Of a DNA stretch of 20,000 nucleotides, positions 1 through 19,209 are shown one piece after another. The notes below the pieces were generated by a model. That model saw nothing but the letters and a program-made list of their open reading frames with translations. It was not told where the DNA came from and did no database searches. Numbering within the stretch: position 1 is the first letter of the stretch; the number at the start of each line of letters is the position of its first letter. Origin of the DNA: Elsinoe ampelina (lineage: Eukaryota); the NCBI GenBank assembly GCA_010093995.1, contig ML992511.1:403801-423800 (forward strand), in the 5' to 3' direction. A program made the position numbers and the translations under genes.

Positions 1-2479
1 CAAGGAGATCAAAGGCCGAGGTACGAGCTTTTTCGTTGACTTCCTTGACCGCAATGACTGCTTCGGAGATGATGGATGGGATGAAGCTGAGGTCAGAGGC
101 GGGAAGAAGAGGAATCAGCACAGAGATGGCTTGAAGTCGATCATGGCGGGCGGGTGCCGTGGCAGTTGGAGCAGCTGCGAGAAGAAGAGCTTGCAATTCT
201 GAGGAGCGTGCTGAAAGTGCTTCCTGTCCGATAGCAGACTCGGAAAGACGCGGGATAAGCTTGTAGGCCTTCTTTTGAAGTTGTGGATCGTTGTCCTTGT
301 TTATGACCGCTGATGCGATGCTGAACAATTGAGGGTAGGTTTCGCGAGGGAGATGTATTGACATGGTAATGATGAGATCTATGAGCGTGTGAGAGGTTGG
401 TGGCATTTTCGGGCCTTTGCTTGGGGCATCTTTCTGCTTGTCGGCCTGGGTCTGTGAGCCTTCTTCTGTGACGGCATTCGATAGAAGATCGGAAACCCGA
501 GTGAAGGTCTCGGTCAGCTCCGCCACTGGGATGATTGAGAGGTATGCATTGGTGCACTGCAATATCAATCCCCGATATTGTGGAAGCGTCTCGCCGTACA
601 CGTTGAATAAGACAGCTAACAGGTTGCTGGCGAAATTTGAGAGATGGGCAATATTCAGCTGTGCCTGAGCCTTTGACACGCGTCCTTGAGCGAGTAGATC
701 CTCTTCACCCTCGACAGATAGGATGATCTGGTTGGAGGCAACAAGGTTCTGCAACGCTCGGCATAAATTAGTCCTCAACTGAGGCTGCTGGTAGAGCAGA
801 TTTGCCAGCAATTCTGCAAAAGTCTGATCGAACGCTTCAATCACGTCCAGTGGCAATTCGCAGTATCCAGGAAGTGTATCCCAGATCTGCTGGACGATAG
901 TCTCGAATATCTTGACTTCCATTGTCTTTGCCGAGTCGCCATGATCGAGAACTCTCTGGAACATGAATTCGCTCAGAGGCACCAACTCTTGTCGGAAATG
1001 CGCAAGCTTCGTGTTCCTTACAGCTGGTCGCATGAGTGGCAGCATCCATGCCCGGCCGACTTGTCCTTTCTTTGGTTTCACTAGGTTCAGAGGAAGGACG
1101 TCAAGTACGAAATCCGGCCCGGCAGCTCTGATGGCAGCTGAGATGACTGTGTCTGCTTCCTTCTTGCCTGCGAAAGCGTCATTGCTTCTCAGATCTCCGA
1201 TAGCCTTGAGAGCGGTCCGTAGAACAGGATTCGACCGCCATTTGAGGGCTTCAAACATGGCACCAACCACATTGAAGACTTCCATCCATGCCGCTTGATA
1301 CTTAACGCTGAGTAGGTCGTCAAGAGATCGTGCCAGCTGCTCGAAGACCTTTTCGTCAAAGATGCTCGGCTCCAAGATGACGCTCGGGGGAATGCAATTG
1401 GTCAGAAAGCTGACCAGACACTCGCTCGCGCTGACTCTAATGTTGTGGCTACCGGAGCCAAGAAAGACAGCGACCATGTTGAAGAGCTCGGGAAGCTTCT
1501 GGAAGGTGTCCTCGGCATCAATCTGAGCAGCTACATCATAGGCTCGACTTAACACGGCGATCCAGGGTGGAAGAAGCTGAGCATCGTCTTTGCTGGGTTG
1601 CAACTCCGTGATGACCTCGAGTAGCCGAGGTAGCTTCGCGCTCGATGTCTCGTCCGCAAGACCGCTGAAGAGCAGCTCAAACACCTCGAACGCCGCCATG
1701 ACCAGGTACTCGCTGCTGCTCTTTGCGATGCCCAATAGGAGCTCGCATAACGCATCAATCTTTCTTGTGGGCCAACCATTGGCTGCTGTGGCCACGGTCT
1801 TGATCAGTTGGAGTCCATGTATCAGTTGTGGTTCGTGACCCTCCCTCTGTGCTCGGTTCCGCTTCGTCTTTCCTGCCTTTTGCGCCTCCTCGGCCAGTAT
1901 CTTCAACGCTGCTTCCGCGCATTGATCTGCCGCGGGATGATCTAAGGACGGGCTTGGGGGCGGGTTCTTCAACACCGTAGCCAGCGCTTCCAGAGCTCGT
2001 TTGCGTACCTTGGGTCGAGGATCGATTGAGAGATTGAGTAGACCGGCTACGGCTCTGCGAGGCGATATTGAAGAGGACGGTAGAGACCAGGCTTGTGAGT
2101 CCTGGACTTTGAGAAGAGATTCGAGGCAGCCGATAGCGCTCCGTACGAGTGGTGCTTCAGCTTCTTGATGTGTGAGGGCCGGGGCGAGGCCAGCGAGAAT
2201 CTGAGAGAACTTTCCTCTTACTAGAGGCGCAGGGACGTGCGGCGTGATCAAATCTAGCAGATACACTACCGCATGTGCCAGATCCTTGTTCACAATTGTT
2301 TCGCCCGAGATGTATTGTGGTAGTAGAGAGAGAAGGGCGGCGAAGTAGGCGGTGGGGGTGAGTTCGGCTTTCTGTGCTCGGAGGGTATCCTCTATGCTCG
2401 AGAGTACCACTGCATTATGTTGTTGGTTTTGCAGCTTGGGCTGCGACCGTATCTTGTCGAGTCTCTCGGTCAGAGACAT
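1..2479 (-). CDS. RRP12: Ribosome biogenesis HEAT-repeat protein Rrp12 (NUC173 family), 3' end beyond the window edge
   Basis: Manual translation from ATG at 2479: MSLTERLDKIRSQPKLQNQQHNAVVLSSIEDTLRAQKAELTPTAYFAALLSLL..., internal TVLKNPPPSPSLDHPAAD, and at the window edge in the same frame ...PSIISEAVIAVKEVNEKARTSAFDLL. These match fungal Rrp12 motifs. Absent from the ORF track, presumably because no stop codon lies inside the window. Confidence 0.93.
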   Translation of the reverse strand, partial: MSLTERLDKIRSQPKLQNQQHNAVVLSSIEDTLRAQKAELTPTAYFAALLSLLPQYISGETIVNKDLAHAVVYLLDLITPHVPAPLVRGKFSQILAGLAPALTHQEAEAPLVRSAIGCLESLLKVQDSQAWSLPSSSISPRRAVAGLLNLSIDPRPKVRKRALEALATVLKNPPPSPSLDHPAADQCAEAALKILAEEAQKAGKTKRNRAQREGHEPQLIHGLQLIKTVATAANGWPTRKIDALCELLLGIAKSSSEYLVMAAFEVFELLFSGLADETSSAKLPRLLEVITELQPSKDDAQLLPPWIAVLSRAYDVAAQIDAEDTFQKLPELFNMVAVFLGSGSHNIRVSASECLVSFLTNCIPPSVILEPSIFDEKVFEQLARSLDDLLSVKYQAAWMEVFNVVGAMFEALKWRSNPVLRTALKAIGDLRSNDAFAGKKEADTVISAAIRAAGPDFVLDVLPLNLVKPKKGQVGRAWMLPLMRPAVRNTKLAHFRQELVPLSEFMFQRVLDHGDSAKTMEVKIFETIVQQIWDTLPGYCELPLDVIEAFDQTFAELLANLLYQQPQLRTNLCRALQNLVASNQIILSVEGEEDLLAQGRVSKAQAQLNIAHLSNFASNLLAVLFNVYGETLPQYRGLILQCTNAYLSIIPVAELTETFTRVSDLLSNAVTEEGSQTQADKQKDAPSKGPKMPPTSHTLIDLIITMSIHLPRETYPQLFSIASAVINKDNDPQLQKKAYKLIPRLSESAIGQEALSARSSELQALLLAAAPTATAPARHDRLQAISVLIPLLPASDLSFIPSIISEAVIAVKEVNEKARTSAFDLL

Positions 2480-2667: not shown

Positions 2668-5600
2668 CTACAATCCAAGAGCCTCGTTGGTCACATAATG
2701 ACTACCGCCTGCACATCGGTAGCCACCCGCCTGCTTGATCCACCTATATCCCATGGGACAGACACCCAAGTTCTGCAGCTTCTGCTGCATTTGCTGCTCA
2801 CGCTTTTGCTCCTCTCTCTGACGCTCCTGCAACAGTCTCAACCTTTCAGCCTCATCGTCCGCCTTTCGCGTAGCCTCCACTGCTGCGAGCCTCATCTGCT
2901 CATGAAGTCGTCTTGCTTCGTCATCCTTGTTGTCTTGTTCTCTGCTCCGTGCCTCCTCCTCCTTTCGCTTCTGCGCCTCGTCACGTAGGCAATCGTGCTT
3001 CTTCTGAGCTTGACTGACTTCGGCGGCAAGGGCAGCTTCTACTCTCTCATTTTCTCGCCGGTCTGATTCGAGCTGGTCCCACACCGCGTCAGCAACCCCA
3101 GCATCGCGCGACCGTGTAGTGTCGGTGATCAGCTCGATTTTGTCATCGTCTTCATCCTGAGACGCTTCGTCTTCATTACCGGCAGAGTAAGTCTTTGCCT
3201 GCGATATGGTGAGGTCTGCTGTCGCACCGGCTTGTAGGTGGTCGAGCGGATGGACAGTTCGGGGAGGGCGTCCGCCAAGGCGACGCTGCTTCTCCTCAAG
3301 CATTCGCTTGATCTGCTCAAGAACAACATCCCAAGTATAGCAAGGTGGTGAAGACCCAGATAGCACTGCCATACGAACCCAACTCGCCAGAGTCTCGACA
3401 TCTCGTCCATTGCCCCATCCTTGTAACTGAGTAAGCTGACCAAAATATCGCAAAGCAGGCGGCTGCGCATTGCTGGTGGCTGTAAGCTGCTGGGGAATCT
3501 TCTGGTCTTGTAGCAATCGCTTCATCAACAGGGTCAGACAGTCTTCAGGCGTGAGGTTGGCGAACATGATCTCCTCCGGAAATCTACTGGAAAGACCTGG
3601 ATTGACACCAAGGAGATGGTTGATTTCATGCTCATAGCCGGCGAGCATAACTAGCATCTTGCCCTTGTATCTCGGCTTGGTCAGACAGTCGACAATTTCG
3701 TCAAGGGCTTCTTTGGCGAACTGTCCCTCGCCGAGACGATATGCTTCGTCGATGAACAGTACCTGGCCAAGCGCTTCCTCGAATTTCGCCACAACTTTGG
3801 GTCCGGTGTGCCCAAGGAAGCTTCCGACCAAGTCGGTAACGGAGCACTCCAGCACGTTGTCTGACGCCAGGAAGCCCATGTCGCAGAAGACCTTGCCAAT
3901 TTTACGTGCTGTAGTAGTCTTGCCGGTGCCTGCGCATGTTAGCCAATAGACTCAGTTGAGCCCGAGGTTACGAATCTTACCTGGGGGTCCTTTGAGAACG
4001 AAATTGAAGGGAATGACATCCAGTGGATCGAGGCCAGTCAACTGGGCGTTCTGATACGCACGAATGTATCCCACCAGCTTGTTGACGATGTGCTCAGTAT
4101 GGATCGTGCCGTTGAAAAGGTCCTTACAATTGCTGATAGCATCCTTGGTTCTGCCAACGTCCGGGTCGAAATCCTCAGGCTCGAAGATCATATCATCAGG
4201 CCTGTTGCTTGCCGGTAGCCTTTGCTGTCGCAGGCGATAGTGCTCCTTTGCTCTGGTAAGCAAATTCTCAACTTCTCCTGCGTTGCCGAAATTTGGCTTG
4301 CGCCGGAGCTTAGCGAGGAGGCCATGCGCTGTCTTTTTGGCGTCCTCAGTGGCACCTATCTTCTGCTTCGACAGCTTGTAGTCCAGGATCACACGCAGCT
4401 CGTTCTCGTCGTAGTCTTCGAAGATGAAAGCATTCTCAACTGGAAAGCGACGGCGAAGGCCGGGGTTCACCTGGCGCAGCATGTCTTCCATTTGATCCTG
4501 GTAGCCCAGAAGCAACACAGCACGATCATCCCCAGGCTCAGAATGGACTTCTGATACAATCGTGTTGACGATGGCTTCACGGAATATGTCCTTGCCATAA
4601 TGGGATGTGCCCTTGGGATTGGAACAGAGGTCGTAAGCTTCGTCGATGACCAAGACTTTACCCCTAGTGTTTTCCAGGATGCCTTTGGTATTCTTCTCCG
4701 ACTCGCCCAAGTGAGCTCCGACAAAGTCAGACGGCGTCTTGACAAGGCACTCGGAAGTGCTGAGGAGCCCAATTTCGGCGAGAATCTTGCCATACAGCTT
4801 GGCTACTGTTGTCTTACCGGTCCCTGGAGATCCCAAGAACAGTCGGTTCAAACTGACGTCGATGGGTGGCTTCTCCTTCAGCTCTCGATGATACGACTCA
4901 GTGACCGAGTCAAGTAGAGTCCGAACTGAATCCTTGACGGTTTGGAGACCTGGAAGCTCTTGAAGCTCCTTCCATGGCTTGCTATGCTGCAGCACCCCTC
5001 CGGGTTCGGGGCCAATCAAGTCTTCCTTCGACAACCAGAAGTCATCAGGCTTCTTGCCCTCCTTACGTTCGGCAGCTATGCGCTTCGACTGCGATGTAGT
5101 GATCCTGGCGATGGTGTTTTCGAGAGCTCGAGCATTGCCGAAACCTTCCTTGCCGCTACCACGGTGAAGGCGTCGAATGACAATCCGTGAATACAGTCCT
5201 GCATTCCCATCTTCGAGCTTCATGCGGCCTTTGAATTTCTGGAAGATCTTCTGCACCATCATATGTAGGAGCTCAGCCGGCGAGTAATCTGGAAAGACGA
5301 TCTGGACGGGTAGACGACTGGGGATCCCTGGGTTGTGCTGGAAGAACTTTTCCATCTGCTTCTCATAGCCGGCAAAGATGAAGACAACCTGCCCTGTGGT
5401 GTTCTCGATCTCTGCAAGGAAGAAGTCGAGCACTGCGGTCCCTCCATTGCCTCCAGCCCCTACACTACCACTCTGAGGTACCAGTTGATACGCTTCGTCT
5501 ACGAAGATAACACCGCCACCAGCCTGCAGAACCTCGTCAAGGGTTTTCTTGGCACCTGTGACGCCTTCATTTGCGATCTTCGAGCTTGTAGTTTCAACAA

Positions 5601-8600
5601 AATGATCACCAGGAATAGCCTCGGTCTCAGCGAGGAACTCCGCATATAGTCGCGCAACTGTCGTCTTGCCTGTACCAGGATTCCCCAAAAATGCTGTGCC
5701 GAGACGCTCATCCTTGAGATCTACGCCCTGTCTCTTTGCAATTTCGATCTTTTGAAAGACATTCAGGAACTGTGACTTGACGGATTCGAGACCGGTCATC
5801 GTCATCAGTTTATCGATCGCCACGTTGCTTGCGCCGTCGTCGTGCTTCATACGGTTCCAAAGGGTCTGAGCTTGACTTGGTGGAAGGGCTGGGATCGTGT
5901 CCCGCTCGAAGCCTGGATGCGTATGCTTGGGTGCAGGTACCCGGCTGACAGATGCGCCACCGTCGGCCTGAGTATCGTCGCTAGATGAATTTTCGTCGTC
6001 GTTCACCTCGTTCTGCGGGTGCTTCGGTTCTGATTGATTTCCAATCAAAGACTTCTGAGACGCGGCATCAAGAGCTCTGACTTTCTTTAAGTATTGGACT
6101 TTCTGTGCGATAGCAAGCCTGCGCTGTTCCTCGAGGTCGCTGAACTGCAGCTTCTGCCGCTCAGCTTCGATCTCAGCATTGAGTTGAGCAATCTTTGCGT
6201 CGTGTACCTGTTGAGCTGCAGCGCTGCGAGTACGCCGATCGTGCTCCTTACGTTGTCGATCTTCTGCGACCTTTCGTTTCTTCTCACAAGTTGGACACGT
6301 TGTTGGACGACCATCGCTACATTGCCACGACAATCTGTGGCGATCTGGGCAGACATCAAGAACGACTGCTTCGCAGCGAATCTTTGAATGATCGTATAAC
6401 TGGTGACATTTCTGCGGACATTCATGAATTCCACAGCTCAACATCGTCCCGCAGGGCATGTCGCAGCCGCCATCGGGACAAGCCTTGTCGAAAGCCTGAA
6501 GATCAGAGAGGACAGCAGTTCGGTCTGGATGGCGCTCACAGCGTACTGGCAGACCGTCGTAAACATGATGGCCTTCTTGTAGTTGTTGGAACAGATCACG
6601 CCAGAGCTCTCGACTTTTGCGAGCTTCCAAGAATGTCTCACTGTTGCCGATGAGGATGAGACCATTCCGGGCTCGAGAAAGCAGCACATTGAGTCTTTCA
6701 GGAGATGACAGAAAGCCAATGTCATGTTTCAGATTACTTCGGGTCAGTGAGACGACAACGACATCGCTTTCTTCACCCTGATAGTTGTCGACGGTGGAGA
6801 TGCGTAAGCGACGACGAGCGAGGTTCGCGGTTGCCTGTGGCATGAGACCAGCGCGGACCAGGTCGAAGGAGTCCATGTCGTTGAGCACAGGATCGTTTTC
6901 GGCGGCAAGGACGTCGTAGAGTAAGCCCAATTGTCCGAGGTAAGGTGTCAATACTACCACTTGATCGGTGCGGTAGCCCTGCTGGGCCAGATAGCGCACG
7001 CATCTCAGCGTCAAGTGAGCCTCGTACTCGTTCGTCTTGGATGAGGTTGCGCCGCCTTCGCGTGGATCGAAGATCACATCCTTCTCCACCTCGAGCTGCC
7101 GGTGATCCACGAAGACGACGCTGTCCTGAAACCCTCGCAGAGCCTTCCTTTCCAGGGTAGATCCCGCATCTCTCAGGTCAGGGTATGTAAGCGACCGTAC
7201 CAGCGCCGATATCTCGGGTCGCATGCGATGCTGCTCGGCGAGAGTTTCATGTGGATACCCTTTGAGAACCAGCCTCTCGAACAGAGACCGATTGAGGTCA
7301 TATCCTGTGCCTTTCTCCACACTCAAATGGTAGTGTGCCTTGGGACGGAGTTGTTTGTGGTCGCCGATAAGGATCAATTGTTTCGTAAATGGACCCAATG
7401 CCGTGATGATATGACTCTCGAGGATCTCGCCTGCCTCCTCCACAAGGACAATGTCTGGCCGGGCAGACTGAATCTCACGGACATACTTGGCAGCTGCTGT
7501 AGTAGTGCATCCAATGATTCTCTTACTTGCCAGTAGCCGTCGACTACCCTCGTTGGAAGCGAGATTGACGGCGTCAAGTTGATGATTGTATTGATCACCA
7601 TAGTTGGCGACTCTTTCAAGTCTTTCTTCCAGGATATCAGCCAGCCAACCACGTCGAAGCTTGTCCCGCTCGTCTTTTGGCAAGGTCCAGATGTGATCAT
7701 GGGTGGATGGGCGATCTTTGACAACACCGGCGTCTTTGCCGCGGCACCATCGATCGAGCAGGTAGAAGTCTTTCAGAGCGCGACCCTTTTCGTCGACGAG
7801 CGTGAACTCTCCTGCTTTCGGGAGCTGGAAAGCTTCAAAGTAGATTTCATGCTCGGTCGAGAACTCAAGGTATTCCATCAGGTCACTGTGACGAGCGCCA
7901 TCCGTTGCAAAGTCGTTGTATGCAGATTTGAGTCTTTTCGCCGTGAGTGCCAGGTCATCTTGGCGAGGACGGATCATGTCCCAATCGGAACGCGTTCTTC
8001 GATATCTTGGATCCGTGGTCACTTGTTGCTGCAAAACCAGGGATTTGGTTGAAGCACTCGCCTTCTGTTGAGATCCTAGTCGGACAATATCAGACTCCGA
8101 TATACCAGTACCAATCAGATCCTCAAGGAATTGGTCGAGAGCATGATTTGTGTACGACAGAACAAGGATCCGAGCCGAGGACTTGAGGTACAGCGCCTTT
8201 GCCACGAGTGCTCCTATGAAGCTCTTGCCCGTGCCGGGTGGTCCTTGGATCAAAGCGACTTGCTGCTGTAGACCCGCGACAAGGCTCTTCGCCTGACTGT
8301 GATCAAGTGTGGTCGTTTTCGGTAGGGAGAGGCTGGCCTGAAGATCCAGAGAGGGGTTGGATCCGAGATCTTCCACGAGTGTGCGGAGCATCCCGTCTAG
8401 CTCGATGTGAAGCGATGGATCGCCGTCCGACCATTCGAGGATATCTGATGCGAGAGGTATGGATCGAGCTGCTTGTAGCTGTTTGAGAATGGGCTCATAA
8501 GCGAAGACTGCCGTTCTGAGGTTGAGTAGCTGTATTTGGCTGGTAGCTCTGATACCGCGAAGGATGGACCTGGTTGCGGAGAGATTTCGCGGTAATTGTA

Positions 8601-9675
8601 GATGGATGACAGGCTGCTGAGAGGCCAAAGTGTCCTCCTTCCTCATAATCCTCCCAAGACCAACGATAGTACCGTCAGCCACGAGGCAGGTTAAAGAATC
8701 GTTGGCCAGAATCTTTGGGTGCTTCTTCAGGAAGTCTTCCCGTTGTGCCGGAGTACCTTTGGGAATGAAGGACAGTTGCTTGGAGCGCTGGAGTGCGATT
8801 GCCCAGGGCTGTTTGTTATTGACGGCAATGCCGATGAGGCGAAGACCATCTATCTTCTGCCGTGTCTGCTTGCTCTGGCCGGATAGCTCATCTTTCAAAT
8901 CTCTGAGCATATCCTCCCTAAGTAGCCTGAATTGGTTATCCAGGTGCGTAGCCAATCTCTGGTCTGGCTCCAATCCATCAATCTCGTCGGCATGGCGTAG
9001 AAAAGGTTCTTCTCGTGCCTGCAATTCATCGACAGAGGGTAAGATGGCGATCTTACGGAAATCTGCATAGTCATTATCGTGGCGACCACCAGGTCCATCC
9101 GGAATCGCCAGAATAGTGCCGGCAAGTGCTGCCAAGACGTGCTTTATACGACTGTAAGTGTTCCTGGTGTCAGCTGATGGCGCATGCTCGAGGACATCGC
9201 GAATGGTAGATCGATTGGCGACCTCAATGTATGAGACGACTTCGCTGTTGGGGACAGAGAGGAGCTGGAGAAGAAGCCATGCGAAGCTGTGAGTAGCGTG
9301 TGCGCCTAGGCTGTGCGTCTCGACCAAGTTACAGAAAGGAGACCAAAAAGTATGGGGCTCGACTATGAGGCGGACCAGATCTTGCAGAAGTTGACCACTG
9401 CAAGCAGCAGCAATCTGAGGTGATTGTATGTACCGGAGGATTTGATCGGAGGTGTCGTTGATGAAGGAAGCGGTGACGTCCACGCGCAACGCCTGTTGGA
9501 GAGCTTGTACGCCATGAGTGGTACTCAATACAGCGGCGATACATTCGACTGGGTCAGACCGCGACACGATAGCCTCTGCGAATCGTTTGGCGCTCGCTGG
9601 TGAAAGAATGGTCTCGGCACCACTGATGACCTGGCGGAAGAAGTGATTTAGCCTTCCTCGCCGCCGGTCGTCCAT
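2668..9675 (-). CDS. ZNFX1-like SF1 RNA helicase with NF-X1-type Cys/His fingers fused to three CbbX/SpoVK-type AAA+ domains; join(9675..3981,3929..2668), ~2318 aa
   Basis: ZNFX1-family motif GPGGRHDNDYADFRKIAILPSVDEL. SF1 motifs QGPPGTGKS, VEEAGE, LIGDHKQLRP, SLFERL, QHRMRPEIS, TPYLGQ, TVDNYQGEE, RLNVLLSRAR. Cys/His cluster CERHP...CPDGGCDMPCGTMLSCGIHECPQKCH...CPTC. Three AAA+ modules: GNPGTGKT/IFVDEAY/NPGIPSRLP, GSPGTGKT/LVIDEAY/NPGLRRRFP, GPPGTGKT/LFIDEAY/NPGLSSRFP. The 1907-aa and 403-aa ORFs join in frame after removal of one intron. Confidence 0.92.
3930..3980 (-). other. Spliceosomal intron (51 nt) splitting the third AAA+ Walker A
   Basis: Minus strand GTAAGA...GCTAAC...CAG with an in-frame TGA. 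Removal restores GPPG|TGKTTTARKIGKVFCDMG. Confidence 0.95.
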
Positions 9676-10001: not shown

Positions 10002-11571
10002 ATGGCGCAAAGAGGTCACTGGCGAGGACAGGGTGCCCGTCGTGGGAGAGGGGGTCGTGCTGGGCATGCATACCGTCCAAATACATCATTGTACTCGCAC
10101 CCGAACATGGTTGAGCTACCACCGCTTTCGGTTTCACAACAACTCCTCGAGCGGATTCCTCTGTCGGACGCGGCACATCTCAAGACGGAAAAAGAAGCCA
10201 AGATCAAAGACGTAGAATATGTTGCAAGTTACAATTGGAAGGAAGCAGGAAAAGATCCTACGATCATTGTCCCCGGTGCGTAAACCCTGTTACTAAGCTC
10301 AGACCATTGATCGTCAACCACATCTTCCCTATCATCAATTTTCACTGTGACTCCCCTTCAGAGATATATCTCTTCCATCTCAGCGTGGCAGTAACATGTC
10401 AATGTAAGTCCTATGCTGATAAGCTCCACCAGGTCGCCCACCACGATGGCAGCCGAGCAGGTCCCCGCAGAAACTGCATGAGGACTCGGGCGTCTATTAC
10501 CGTGACGTGAATGGAGCACACTTTCCATCATACCCTGTTGAGCCAGCCTTGAGGGCTATTCTGGTCCAGAGGCCCGGTATCACGTTGGCCGACATCCAGA
10601 TCTTCGGCTGCGGGAATACCTTCGGAAGTCTTCTATCCTTCGTTAGGAACGAAGAGCGCACCTTTCGATTCGGGGTCGAGCAAGTTGGATCCAGTGTCTT
10701 CTTTGTGCGTAAGACGAACACGCCACGAGAGACGCTCGACGATGTCCGGAGATTTGGTCATGCTTTTCCAGATGCCAACACTATTTGGGAGAAGGACGTC
10801 ACGACCACGAGTTCGCACCAGCGGGTCATCAGTTACACATTTGCTGGTCTCAAATGCTTCATCAGGTCCGAGAGCGACGGCTATCTCCCACACAAGGCAG
10901 GTGTTGTGGTGGCGTCAGACTCCGACAAGCGCGATGACCTGGGCTCTCCCAACTCAAGTCGCATGGGCGCGCTCTCACTTGGCCTAACTTCTTCACCCAC
11001 ATCTCGGAGTCTTGTTGTCGAAAAGGCAGGACAGTCCATCCCCCAAGCCGCCATATTCGACCTCAAGACTCGTACCATCAAGAAGAAGACAGACCACATC
11101 TCCGCGGACGACTTCCTGCATCGCCTTTGGGTGAATCAGACTCCCAACTTCATCATCGCGTTCCATACCCACGGCACTTTCGATCCCAAAGACGTGCACG
11201 TCATCGATGCGGGGCCTGGCATTCAGAAGTGGGAGAGCGATCACGCCCACGAGCTGGCGCTTCTCGGCGGCGTGCTTCACAAGCTCAAGGACATGGCGCG
11301 CACCGTGAAGGGCAACAAATTTGAAGTCAGAAGATCTGTGAATGGTCCACTCGAGATCTTCTCAGAAGTACAGTCCTTTTCTGCCCTTCCAGACGATCTG
11401 AAGAAATTGTGGGGCAGTGCAGAGGAGGAGTTTGTTGATGCAGTGGAGCAGCAGGGCGGCGCGAATGATCACAGCGATGATCACGACGGTGATCAGGATG
11501 GTGGTGCGCCCATCGACGTCGGCAGCGAGAGCGATAGTGACGAAGGCGATGAGGACTATCTCAAGTTCTGA
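10002..11571 (+). CDS. Divergent RAI1/DXO-like PD-(D/E)XK-fold putative nuclease; join(10002..10275,10433..11571), ~470 aa
   Basis: Spliced reading: MAQRGHWRGQGARRGRGGRAG...VASYNW...PTIIVPG|RPPRWQP...DSGVYYRDVNGAHFPSYPVEPALRAI. Ordered motifs resembling RAI1/DXO: FGHAFP (cf. GhxhE), SHQRVISYTFAGLKCFIRSESDG (cf. EhD), IFDLKT (cf. EhK), LWVNQTPNFIIAFHTHG (cf. WxQ...GhR). Acidic C-terminal tail. The gene model is well supported; the nuclease assignment is my inference; the exact start codon is uncertain. Confidence 0.75.
10276..10432 (+). other. Spliceosomal intron (157 nt)
   Basis: GTGCGT donor, GCTGAT branch-like motif at 10415-10420, CAG acceptor at 10430-10432. Splicing joins exon 1 in frame to the 354-aa ORF. 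Confidence 0.85.
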
Positions 11572-13160: not shown

Positions 13161-14471
13161 TCAATCCCTATGCCTCCTGAACAAATCAAACAAACTCCTC
13201 CTCTTCTTCGGGGGACTCTTATCCCCATCCCGTCCCTTGACCTCCCCCTTCTCCGCCTTCAACGCCACCGCCGAGTCCTTGCTGTTATCCCTCCACGGCG
13301 CGCTAGGCCTCTTCATCGCGCGCTTCTCCTTCGCCGCTCTGGCGCCTGATACATCCTGCACTGTCGGGGCGGCTTCTCCCTCCGCTACACTGCCCAACCG
13401 CTCACGGCTCATCAGTCCGGCTCTCGTGCCCGGTCGTCCTTCCGTGCCGGGGATGAAGCTCATGCGGGCGCTGGGTCGGCGGCCTTCGATGCCAGTGGCG
13501 GGTGAGGCGGAGGGGATGAAGCGACTGCTTCGCCTTGCCAGGCGGCCGAGGAAGGATTGTCGCTCTGCGTCGTCTTGGGCGCAGGTTTGGCTTGCTTGAG
13601 CCCAGTCGTGGCGGTCAGCGGGTGCAGGCCGCCAGGACTTGCGGTGGGACTTCTTCGCCTCGCGGTCGGTGGAGGGGTCGTTCTCGTCTTGTTGTGGGGA
13701 GAGATAAGGGTTGCGGGGCATTGGAGGGGCGATATGGTGGAGGTCTGGCATGGTGATGTTCTCAAAGGCGGTGCTGAGGGCACGATTCTTGCGGGCGCTG
13801 GGTTTGCGCTCGGGTGATTGCTTGTCTGCTGTGGATTTTGTGCTGGGTTGCCGGTTGAGGCGCGAGGCGCTGGCGGGTTCGAGGAAGAACGAGCGGCGGT
13901 TGGCTGCTTTTCGTGCTTTGGTGAATTCTGCCTCTTCACGACTGCGTTCTTGGGAGAGGTGATGGAGGGCTTCGTTCTCGCTCATGCCTTTTTCCCGTGC
14001 TGCGAGGAGCTGCTTCGGGTTTAGCCACTGAGATGAGCGGCCCGAGTCGACACGGTCGTCGTCTGACTTGTCAGATCGATCTGAGCGGTCGGACTTGTCG
14101 GAATAGTCGTGATACCGACTCTGGCGACGAGACTTGGTGTCTGGTCCAGCAGTATTTGGTCTGGCAATCTCGCCATTGCTATGTAGCGAAAGGCGGGATG
14201 CGTAACGAGGTTGGTAAGTAAGATTGGATGATCTCTTATCCTGCAATTGCTTGCTACGTTGTCGTACTTGCTCCAACTTGAGCTCCAGACGGTAAGCTTC
14301 CAGTCGACGACATAATTCGTTGACGTCGAATGGTTCTAGTTGGCGGTGCGGGCGATCTGCAGGAGGGATCTAGAAATAGTCAGTAAGCATGAACAGCACA
14401 AAAGAACACCTCCAACTCACATCCAACTCCATAGACTCCGCCCTGTATAATCCAATATCGACAGCAGCCAT
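13161..14471 (-). CDS. Hypothetical Arg/Ser-rich, probably disordered protein; join(14471..14421,14369..13161), ~419 aa
   Basis: ATG at 14471 gives MAAVDIGLYRAESMELD, then a canonical intron, then IPPADRPHRQLEPFDVNELCRRLEAYRLELKLEQ... in frame with the 371-aa ORF. No recognisable domain. Confidence 0.8.
14370..14420 (-). other. Spliceosomal intron (51 nt)
   Basis: Minus strand GTGAGT...ACTGAC...TAG, phase 0; the acceptor TAG is an in-frame stop if the intron is retained. Confidence 0.88.
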
Positions 14472-16401: not shown

Positions 16402-19209
16402 TTACCATCTCGGTCGTGATTGGTCGCTTTTATCGATATTATGCATGGAATCAAGCTCCGATTTGACAGCTGACACGCATTCGTCCATCACGTCCGTTCC
16501 CACCCGCCAGCTTCGTAACATGACCCCTTGACGGTCCATGATGTCCTTTGCTCTGCGCCATCGTCGCTTCCATAGTTCTTCACGCTTGTTCACTGACTGC
16601 CCAGTAGTCTCATCGATAGCTTCTGTCCCGTTCCAGTAACCGCTCAGGCGTGACGCCGTAGAAGCTGCTGAGGAAGCAACACCTTGGCTCCGCCTTTGCG
16701 GGGGAGGTGCTGGATTATTGAGTCTAGTCGTCGAATGCAAACTCCTGGTATCTGCAGGTGAGATGGAAGTATTGGATGCAATACTCATGGACCGCGGGCT
16801 GTTTGCGTAACCATATGATGGGTCCGTGCCGTAGCCGTTCTGTGGCTGTCCGCTCAGTGAAGGCAAGGCGTTGTACGCCGCATTCAACTTGTGCATTGCA
16901 TACCCGCGCACGCCTTGGCCTTGTCTGTCAGGGTACACGGGCGCTCGAGTCTCGACAGGCGAACTCTCTTGTACCTGATGTAGTGGTGACGGACTTGTCG
17001 GTCGCACACTCGACGAAGGTTTTCTTGGCCTCGGTGGTGGAGGCTTGATGGTGTTCTGGCTACCAGTTGCCTGTTCAGATGCATCAGATGCACTCCGCAA
17101 TCTCACAGGCTTCGATGGTGGCTGCGGCTTGGGTGTAGATGACGGCGAGCTCAATCCTGCCGGTTTGGCGGGCACCGAAGGTGGTGGTCGGCTAAAGGCG
17201 TTCTGTTTGGGAGTAGGATCGTCGTCGCGCAGGTCAATCAAATCCCCTATATCGGAATCGCTACTTGGCTGATAAGAATCGATAGTCGACTGTGATGGGC
17301 GTTGTGGTAGTGGTGGCCTCTCCTCCCGATCATACCTGCTAAATTGCATTTTTGTCGGTGATGGTCCGTCAGAGAAGATATCCCTTCGTTGACGGGCAGT
17401 ATCACGCTCCATGTCTTGTAAGGATGCTGCGATTGCTGCTTCGAGATCCTTGTCATCGTTCTGTATATCCGATGGTCTAGAGAAGCGCTTTGCATGTGAC
17501 AAGCTATCGACACTTGGATTCCGTGAGTGTCGATCTCGAGGAGTAGTAGCACCACTGCCGCTCAATGGTCCCATGGACGGGTCAAAGAAGCCTCTATTGC
17601 CTGGCATGGTCACATCACGGATGAAGACTCCAATGACCCGGCCCGGATTTTCCATGACCACGTCAGTGTACACCTCGAGATCCGCCTCTCCACTATCGCC
17701 AATCAACAGGAAGCGTCGTTCAGGGAAGTCTCTGAACAGTCTTTCCAGCGTGGCTTTCTTCCGCTCTGCTACTGGTTCGAAAATTCCCTGAAGCATACCA
17801 CTGTACTGCTTGAGATGGAATGAACCTCTAGGCAGACCTGCTATCGAAAAGAAGCTGGTCATGACGGGAAAGAGTTGCCAGGGCGAGTTGGAGACATAAT
17901 GTAGCTGGACACCAAGATCAGACATCTTGTTATACCACTCCTTGACGCCTTCCACTGTCAACTCGCTCAGATCTCGGATAAAGGCGTTGCGGAATATCTC
18001 TCGGGCACCTCGTGTGATGGCTGAATGCCGAATGGTATCATCGATGTCGCTGATCAGACTGACACCTTTCGATTCTACCACTTTGACCTCTTCTTGGATC
18101 GACAAGTCTTCCATGGCGATGACACGGACGTGAGTCGGCACAAAATCGAGAGCTGCCCTGAAAGAAAAGTGTCCATATGCATCTGTCGTGACGGATTTCT
18201 GGCGTGACGTCATCTCATTGTAGAAAAAGGCATTGATGGTCGTACTCGTCAAAGGGTTGTGCATGAAGGGTTTGAGTCGAGTCATGAGGTTGGCATTTGC
18301 GATGGCGAGTTCAGCTGCCGACATGGACATTTGGGTCGTCGTTTGATTCTGATGGATGGAGCTGCTCTGGTTGGTACTCGAAATGGAGGCGAAACTCTCC
18401 GTACGCTTCGGCGGAAAGCTAGGTCCTTGATCTTGCAGCTCGTGTATACTATCCTTGTCCGAGTCGGGAGGTCGTTCACTAAAGCGCCCCTGCCGTGCTG
18501 CCTCAGCTTCTGCTTCGCCTTTGCTAATTATTGCTGCCGCTTCCTTTGATGCGAGCTCCTCTTCTGCGCGTATCGAAGTATTTCGAGAAGGACTCGCAGG
18601 ACGACTGCTTGGCGCACTGGAGCCAGCATTGCTTGATGGAGCAGGAATACCGACGAGTTGTCTTGCAAGAGCTATCATCAAACGTTGCTTGCGAGTCATC
18701 TGGCCTTTGTGAGGAGTGAATACCCAGCCTCGAACGTCGACGTCTACTATCGCGCGGTCGTCCTCGTAATTTTCCCATTGCTGCTTCCAGAATTCCGCAT
18801 CGCCAGCTCCTACGGTGTCTCTGTAGTCTCGTCCTGTGCCGGGTACTTCTTGAATGCTACCAGGGACTGCTTCGGGCTTGTATGTCAAAATCAGCAACAT
18901 TTCGTTATTCAGGGATATCACGCCTACCTTGACCTTGATATGTCGCCGTGCGTAGCTTGGGAACAAGATCATCTGCTCCTCACCAGTCGAGACCATGGCG
19001 ACGTTGTTGAAATCAGCATTATTACCATTCTGATTTTCACCCTCTGGCTTGTTCCAGCTTTGAACATATGTTTGTCGCAATTCGTTCGCAGCCTTGAGGT
19101 ACCCAGCTATCTTTCTGCGCCTCCCCCCTGATTCGCGAACCTCCTGCCGGCCATCTGAGTAGTTCTCATCGTTGTAATATCCTCTTTCTGCTTGGCCTCG
19201 GTATGCCAT
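16402..19209 (-). CDS. APP1: Phosphatidate phosphatase App1 (actin patch protein 1); probable join(19209..18928,18876..16402), ~918 aa
   Basis: HAD-like catalytic motif GVSLISDIDDTIRHS (DxDxT), HYVSNSPWQL, FPERRFLLIGDSGEADLEVY, IFIRDV-like VFIRDV, and a Pro-rich C-terminus. First in-frame ATG is at 19209; the track's 19548 start is a TTG. Confidence 0.92.
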   Translation of the reverse strand: MAYRGQAERGYYNDENYSDGRQEVRESGGRRRKIAGYLKAANELRQTYVQSWNKPEGENQNGNNADFNNVAMVSTGEEQMILFPSYARRHIKVKVGVISLNNEMLLILTYKPEAVPGSIQEVPGTGRDYRDTVGAGDAEFWKQQWENYEDDRAIVDVDVRGWVFTPHKGQMTRKQRLMIALARQLVGIPAPSSNAGSSAPSSRPASPSRNTSIRAEEELASKEAAAIISKGEAEAEAARQGRFSERPPDSDKDSIHELQDQGPSFPPKRTESFASISSTNQSSSIHQNQTTTQMSMSAAELAIANANLMTRLKPFMHNPLTSTTINAFFYNEMTSRQKSVTTDAYGHFSFRAALDFVPTHVRVIAMEDLSIQEEVKVVESKGVSLISDIDDTIRHSAITRGAREIFRNAFIRDLSELTVEGVKEWYNKMSDLGVQLHYVSNSPWQLFPVMTSFFSIAGLPRGSFHLKQYSGMLQGIFEPVAERKKATLERLFRDFPERRFLLIGDSGEADLEVYTDVVMENPGRVIGVFIRDVTMPGNRGFFDPSMGPLSGSGATTPRDRHSRNPSVDSLSHAKRFSRPSDIQNDDKDLEAAIAASLQDMERDTARQRRDIFSDGPSPTKMQFSRYDREERPPLPQRPSQSTIDSYQPSSDSDIGDLIDLRDDDPTPKQNAFSRPPPSVPAKPAGLSSPSSTPKPQPPSKPVRLRSASDASEQATGSQNTIKPPPPRPRKPSSSVRPTSPSPLHQVQESSPVETRAPVYPDRQGQGVRGYAMHKLNAAYNALPSLSGQPQNGYGTDPSYGYANSPRSMSIASNTSISPADTRSLHSTTRLNNPAPPPQRRSQGVASSAASTASRLSGYWNGTEAIDETTGQSVNKREELWKRRWRRAKDIMDRQGVMLRSWRVGTDVMDECVSAVKSELDSMHNIDKSDQSRPRW
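18877..18927 (-). other. Probable spliceosomal intron (51 nt, in frame, stop-free)
   Basis: Minus strand GTAGGC...GCTGAT..TTGAC..AAG; AT-richer than flanks; reads as an out-of-character peptide VGVISLNNEMLLILTYK. Confidence 0.7.

Follow-up and report, generated by a model that had tools for sequence, protein, structure and literature searches.

A 20,000-nucleotide stretch of the Elsinoe ampelina genome (hereafter the window; NCBI GenBank assembly GCA_010093995.1, contig ML992511.1, positions 403,801 to 423,800 of the forward strand) encodes on its minus strand, at 9675-2668, a 2318-aa protein in which a superfamily 1 (SF1) helicase of the ZNFX1 type precedes three tandem AAA+ modules (AAA1, AAA2 and AAA3) of the SpoVK-CbbX-EccA clade. 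Judging from residue patterns in the modules and from the modelled structure of a relative, it is fairly probable that the protein works as a homo-oligomer of several chains, most likely six, with the AAA+ modules stacked in three tiers and AAA3 gripping the substrate. In such an assembly, AAA1 would contact AAA1, AAA2 would contact AAA2 and AAA3 would contact AAA3 between chains, giving three stacked ATPase tiers that might resemble p97 or ClpB plus one storey. AAA1 and AAA2 would construct and regulate the stack, AAA2 as an active tier like the first nucleotide-binding domain (NBD1) of ClpB, with two trans arginines but without sensor-2. The polypeptide would be gripped and pulled by AAA3, which alone among the tiers has an aromatic pore loop, and the helicases, carried on long helical stalks, could bind RNA and deliver an RNA–protein target to the pore.

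The gene (2668..9675, minus strand) has two exons, 9675-3981 and 3929-2668. A minus-strand open reading frame (ORF) of 1907 aa lies at 9675..3952 and a second one terminates at 2668, and a 51-nt GT..AG intron (3980..3930, minus strand) within the Walker A motif of AAA3 fuses both in frame and restores that motif. Walker A motifs in the spliced chain number four and start at residues 478, 1331, 1615 and 1896. An assembled contig of sequencing run X1, which is presumed to be RNA by the tool's guess, no run recorded as RNA being among those listed, is continuous over 2682-6544, thus covering the zinc-finger region and all three AAA+ modules, and omits exactly the 51 intron bases. Frameshifting or read-through at 3952 was rejected in favour of the intron, given the in-frame rebuilding of Walker A and the skip in the contig. 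Many ORF-called relatives stop right after the same GPPG as in the AAA3 Walker A at the intron site. The public protein model of E. ampelina (P0003) uses the same splice and matches to the end; it starts at Met567 and is without the first 566 residues (window 7977-9675, minus strand), including the helicase Walker A.

That helicase and AAA+ modules belong to one chain, as the first-pass annotation of this DNA had claimed, is borne out by the open frame, the splice in the X1 contig and the layout of homologues, and the motifs it quoted were all found in the modules to which it had assigned them. Scoring of 8000 candidates gave 1585 hits at E 0.001, of which the 120 best were taken as homologues; each of the 120 has the helicase plus two or three modules, and the complete layout of helicase, three AAA+ modules and C-terminal finger is shared by 102. 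It might be proposed that the AAA+ block is an independent effector serving many sensors, with the helicase as one docking domain and the block perhaps made alone, since the cassette is also found in proteins that lack a helicase and in others where ankyrin repeats, NACHT_N, MSP or a large GTPase with VWA come first, the public model begins at Met567, and the helicase core lies on separate X1 contigs, none of which links it with the AAA+ block (depth is ~20 over the 3′ half and 0-9, with uncovered gaps, over the helicase half, and is unfit for ranking gene parts). We regard this as quite improbable, because one open frame of 1898 codons covers the helicase together with AAA1 and AAA2, every one of the best hits keeps the helicase next to its modules, and the helicase motifs are near-invariant.

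AAA1 (aa 1266-1556; 5008..5880, minus strand) carries K1337, E1394, finger R1454, sensor-2 R1516 and a short non-aromatic pore loop; AAA2 (aa 1557-1845; 4141..5007, minus strand) carries K1621, E1679, the double finger R1742-R1743 and G1800 at the sensor-2 position; and AAA3 (aa 1846-2115; 3280..4140, minus strand), which spans the intron, carries K1902, pore residue F1936, E1960, finger R2014 and sensor-2 R2074. In the 97 full-length homologues among the 120 best hits, in which motif conservation was counted, the Walker A Lys, the Walker B Asp-Glu and the arginine finger are present in 97/97 in every module, which supports ring formation in some form. An aromatic pore residue occurs only in AAA3 (97/97), and the pore loop Tyr-Ile-Gly of CbbX is required for remodelling according to the available text of PMC5385338. 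The unequal conservation noted at first pass stands as a set of real motif differences that form a fixed family pattern, and not as decay: mean pairwise identity is 0.63 for AAA1, 0.65 for AAA2 and 0.55 for AAA3, and since AAA1 and AAA2 are overall more conserved than AAA3, specialisation is indicated. Degeneration of AAA1 and AAA2 was rejected on the same identities and the invariant catalytic motifs.

Matches of the modules to CbbX (E 9e-29) and EccA1 are much stronger than that to p97 (1e-8), and the SpoVK-CbbX-EccA clade (PDB 3syk, 3zuh, 9lur) gives their best sequence and fold matches, with Walker motifs and lid in common. The consulted part of PMC11513918 names a GY in the sensor-1 region and a conserved Asn upstream of the arginine finger as signatures of this clade; GY is found in 97/97 homologues in each module, as is the Asn of NPG, which lies six residues ahead of the invariant Arg, where the paper gives four. 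Membership of this clade rather than of the Cdc48 type, as previously proposed, is thus upheld, with 87-148 bits per module, far below the curated whole-protein cut-offs of 423-467 bits for SpoVK, CbbX and EccA. The window protein differs from the clade in having three modules per chain and in the absence of the clade's sensor-2 Arg from AAA2. The earlier view of AAA3 as the most CbbX-like module holds for its pore loop and fails for the whole-module CbbX scores (118, 121 and 87 bits for AAA1 to AAA3, the AAA3 query missing ~54 N-terminal residues). Setting this ancestry against the classical eukaryotic AAA clades, as the first-pass annotation did, is ill-posed because the clade lies within the ‘Classical AAA+’ assemblage (PMC11513918, in the section consulted).

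An arginine swap in AAA2 points to how the modules might meet. The residue preceding the finger is Arg in AAA2 (96/97) and Ser in AAA1 (96/97) and AAA3 (97/97), and the sensor-2 position is Gly in AAA2 (97/97) and Arg in AAA1 and AAA3 (96/97 each), so AAA2 has lost the Arg at sensor-2 and gained another one next to the arginine finger of the same module. All fetched proteins and loci together yielded 1125 modules, of which 209 were uncallable and dropped; 904 of the 916 with both motifs callable obey the swap rule, and the sensor-2 Arg is absent from 235/236 double-Arg modules. Within tandem proteins, agreement with the rule reaches 868/880 when both residues come from the same module, versus 157/505 with the next module and 155/505 with the previous one. 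Most of the raw counts come from related fungal sequences, and the tree-based test is the fair one: on a 604-module tree built with both swap residues masked, there are 21 changes of swap state, at least 15 of them forced, and 13.5 of 15 independent pairs go in the same direction and none in the opposite one (median p 0.00024), with p 1 and 0.5 for neighbour-module pairs and p 0.008 for same-row controls. Some AAA1 and AAA3 modules carry the swap too, and it occurs in bacteria as well. A mutual-information scan of 170 three-module cassettes was uninformative, its top pairs being variable linker columns.

Because the swap covaries within a module and not with its neighbours, like-with-like contacts are indicated. 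According to the available text of PMC5039278, lid-bearing AAA+ proteins use sensor-2 in cis and members of the classic clade do not have it, and ClpB NBD1, which shares with AAA2 two adjacent arginines and the absence of sensor-2, employs them in trans (PMC4239642, as far as the text consulted goes). We infer that the finger Arg of AAA2 could offset the lost sensor-2 only if it reaches into the AAA2 site of a second chain.

Structural modelling suggests stacking as well. The AlphaFold2 model is of a relative, P0143 (65 sequences; predicted local distance difference test, pLDDT, 89; predicted template modelling score, pTM, 0.71), and not of the window protein, to which P0143 is 48% identical over AAA1-AAA2. 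Its AAA2-AAA3 pair overlays on single chains of double-ring ATPases, namely Sec18 (9cru_A, 5.9 Å over 457 residues), Rix7 (7swl_A, 5.9 Å over 452), NVL (9bji_A, 6.3 Å over 458) and Drg1 (7z11_A, 6.3 Å over 468), and its AAA1-AAA2 pair on Rix7 (6mat_A, 7.1 Å over 456) and Pex1 (8u0v_F, 8.8 Å over 483). The predicted stacking of consecutive modules would be shared with type II double-ring ATPases (p97/Cdc48, Rix7/NVL, Drg1, NSF/Sec18, ClpA/ClpB), from which the window protein differs in its three predicted tiers, its AAA+ clade and its fused helicase. RNF213, dynein and midasin each have several AAA+ modules arranged side by side within a single chain. The window protein shares with them several modules in one large chain and differs in that like-with-like stacking is favoured, very long chains not being compared fairly, and in that no RZ finger was detected; none of their chains is among the overlay matches listed, very long chains not having been aligned. 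RNF213 is described as an immune sensor tied to ZNFX1 by the RZ finger in the accessible part of bioRxiv 10.1101/2025.10.14.682297. Predicting a complex of three AAA2 copies and ATP gave a score of 0.00 twice, with the alignment not used, and counts neither way.

The same evidence bears on the proposal of the first-pass annotation that two three-module chains form one pseudo-hexamer, which would be dynein-like (AAA1-2-3-1′-2′-3′) and perhaps aided by N-terminal dimerisation. Two times three is six, and on a FastTree of 184 modules, containing no CbbX or EccA sequence, AAA1, AAA2 and AAA3 are old, separate eukaryote-wide groups (support 99, 99 and 95) apart from the bacterial repeats; furthermore, in the text available, human ZNFX1 dimerises via its armadillo domain (bioRxiv 10.1101/2025.10.14.682297) and red-algal CbbX is a 1:1 hetero-hexamer (PMC5385338). 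However, the compensating Arg sits in AAA2's own finger, neighbouring modules show no association, and AAA1 and AAA3 keep Ser before the finger and would therefore be unable to supply that Arg to AAA2. The modelled pairs of modules superpose on chains with stacked rings, an aromatic pore loop would stand at only two of six positions, and helicase-fused relatives with four or five modules exist, their extra modules being copies of AAA3 or AAA2 on the 184-module tree, so added tiers fit better than a fixed 2 × 3 ring. The proposal is thus unsupported, and we consider it unlikely.

A further arrangement of like-with-like contacts would be open spirals or filaments, with RNA triggering polymerisation and the assembly acting as a signal or a sequestering body. 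Homotypic covariation suits spirals as well as rings, the number of modules varies among relatives, and published observations include CbbX spirals without ribulose bisphosphate (PMC5385338) and ZNFX1 polymers in vitro (bioRxiv 10.1101/2025.10.14.682297), both in the portions of text consulted. Nevertheless, the aromatic pore loop in 97/97 AAA3 modules suggests threading through a closed or near-closed ring, and we consider polymerisation unlikely.

Several points weigh against the stacked three-tier homo-oligomer favoured here. The trans reading of the covariation is drawn from textbook geometry, and coupling within a subunit would be possible. Overlays of 6-9 Å are loose and AlphaFold may lean to common folds; other double-ring chains differ from P0143 by 10-15 Å, and the overlay, from which chains above 3000 residues were excluded, gave no fair comparison with dynein-like rings. 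The mass of a hexamer would be ~1.5 MDa, and the literature searched gave no pointer to induction by virus or RNA.

The N-terminal half ties the protein to ZNFX1. Its best PDB match is human ZNFX1 (9q9z, E 8.7e-82, versus 2.9e-36 for UPF1), and profile comparison gave 3.3e-141 versus 6e-51, which makes the helicase a closer relative of ZNFX1 than of UPF1, Aquarius, Sen1 or IGHMBP2 and confirms its earlier identification. The SF1 (UPF1-like) helicase, with 1B and 1C insertions, occupies aa 191-1040 (6556..9105, minus strand), has K484 in Walker A and EEAG at 746-749 in Walker B, and keeps its motifs in 94-97/97 homologues, the EE-type VEEAG in 95-97/97. Preceding it is a helical domain (aa 1-190; 9106..9675, minus strand), possibly the armadillo-type domain of ZNFX1: the family profile aligns to 9q9z from position 37, with low confidence over this domain, which gave no alignment to the canonical ZNFX1 of the same genome. 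It is followed by a short stalk with conserved Cys and His (aa 1041-1131; 6283..6555, minus strand), whose ~90 residues align with the first zinc fingers of ZNFX1 (9q9z 1350-1426). The profile scan proposed at first pass returned Pfam AAA_11, AAA_12, AAA and AAA_lid_6, and zf-NF-X1 is not among the matches listed.

Helicase, EE-type Walker B, 1B/1C insertions and the stalk after the helicase are thus shared with human ZNFX1 as described in the accessible text of bioRxiv 10.1101/2025.10.14.682297, whereas the window protein has a short stalk, three AAA+ modules and a small C-C-H finger, with no Miz/RING-like or RZ ligase domain found and no Pfam match to an RZ or RING finger. The same genome holds a canonical fungal ZNFX1 (L016:3006-8830, minus strand; G000:C15) with a long zinc-finger array and an RZ finger (Pfam ZnF_RZ-type, E 3.4e-23). 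Given this separate RZ-ended gene, the window gene is a paralogue with a different tail, its ubiquitin-ligase end apparently swapped for three AAA+ modules of the SpoVK/CbbX clade.

Both segments flanking the AAA+ block, described as coiled coils at first pass, are long charged helices, with heptad enrichment in the second and none in the first. The first (aa 1132-1205), recognised from conservation and the predicted model, leads into a low-complexity linker (aa 1206-1265; together 5881..6282, minus strand), and the second follows a conserved RD-x-GV-x-D-x-x-W-x-QL motif (aa 2173-2287; 2764..3108, minus strand). The chain ends in a conserved finger, C2289-x14-C2304-x4-H2309 (2671..2766, minus strand), a helix with three short strands whose fold is confidently predicted (pLDDT 89). 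It matched no known Pfam family and gave no usable Atlas match, and its best structural Z among 48,161 chains was 4.4, with no Foldseek match at E 0.001 in the PDB and viral models, absences that prove neither a new fold nor a lack of relatives. An RZ finger was rejected as its identity, given a profile probability of 0.4%, an E of 0.14 versus the RZ finger of the paralogue and an unmatched catalytic Cys, despite Cys, Gly-Gly and His being in register.

By its homologues, the gene is common in Ascomycota and Basidiomycota, to which the organisms named among the 120 best hits belong, and is also present in algae and protists. A wider survey of 150 representatives, with organism names for 30 proteins, yielded helicase fusions beyond fungi in Chlorochromonas danica and Diplonema papillatum (four modules) and in a cluster with Cymbomonas tetramitiformis (five modules, the last a partial match). 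The three-module cassette also stands behind other domains (P0162, P0217, P0215 and P0219), including URGCP-like GTPase, VWA and MSP in Mesostigma, ankyrin repeats, and NACHT_N in Trichoderma. Helicase-less fungal three-module paralogues occur (P0174, P0176, P0230, P0232; loci L019, L021, L025), some with altered AAA1 Walker motifs and long inserts between modules, and P0123 and P0171 have eight and six or seven tandem SpoVK-like modules, respectively, those of P0123 clustering with Bacteroidota modules on the tree. In bacteria, 80 GTDB loci were kept of 389 confirmed; their 83 ORFs have one to four modules each and gave no match (0/83) to the helicase, zinc stalk or C-terminal finger. These bacterial proteins share tandem modules of the same clade and the recurring arginine swap, whereas their repeats arose separately according to the tree. 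No close relative was found in viral contigs, searched with single-protein patterns only.

Upstream of the gene lies a head-to-head neighbour (10002..11571, plus strand), with 326 bases between the start codons and a candidate intron between 10280 and 10432. It belongs to an uncharacterised fungal family, auto-named ‘geranylgeranyl pyrophosphate synthetase’, and had no Pfam, NCBIfam or PDB sequence match; its weak RAI1/DXO lead comes solely from an Atlas cluster in which 49% of members carry RAI1 (score 0.88). The same divergent pairing recurs in L018, the one locus among those fetched that includes the complete gene together with a long stretch upstream of it, and no fusion of the neighbour to an AAA+ protein was seen among the fetched AAA+ proteins. 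The neighbour is a possible partner, and ZNFX1 homology, the partner domains of the cassette and the RAI1 lead together make a role in RNA surveillance or antiviral defence likely; the literature searched offered no expression or phenotype evidence. Two ordinary fungal genes flank the locus, an RRP12 gene cut by the edge of the window (2-2479, minus strand) and an APP1-type phosphatidate phosphatase gene (16402-19209, minus strand). A low-complexity ORF at 13161-13985 (minus strand; upstream to ~14470), with no Pfam match, probably represents the final exon of a small gene, and the abrupt G+C drop into TA-rich sequence at 19740-20000 would be expected at the edge of a repeat mutated by repeat-induced point mutation.

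The architecture is no discovery of this window: it is already annotated in many genomes and mentioned in one printed sentence of PMC11513918, whose consulted text speaks of poorly characterised eukaryotic clade members with an SF-1 RNA helicase domain and a predicted role in RNA processing, and whose supplement text has nothing further on them. PMC11090510, in the part available, concerns bacterial systems only, and the literature searched, which covered few subscription papers, contained no study devoted to the protein or to the arginine swap in its clade. The new part is a testable model of a stacked three-tier assembly, for which the swap names the exact residues. To our knowledge, stacked AAA+ machines have two tiers, and a three-tier ring, if true, would be structurally unusual. 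More tentatively, and somewhat doubtfully at present, a three-tier machine of ~18 ATPase sites with six RNA helicases could represent a eukaryote-wide, ubiquitin-independent form of RNA defence of the ZNFX1 type, in which proteins bound to foreign RNA are stripped off or remodelled, joined in fungi by the head-to-head RAI1/DXO-like nuclease. On that reading, the recurring swap would also reveal the origin of classic AAA sites and provide a sequence rule separating stacked from side-by-side tandem modules. If the protein does act on RNA–protein complexes, it would stand next to canonical ZNFX1 as a branch of RNA surveillance in fungi and protists that has yet to be studied.

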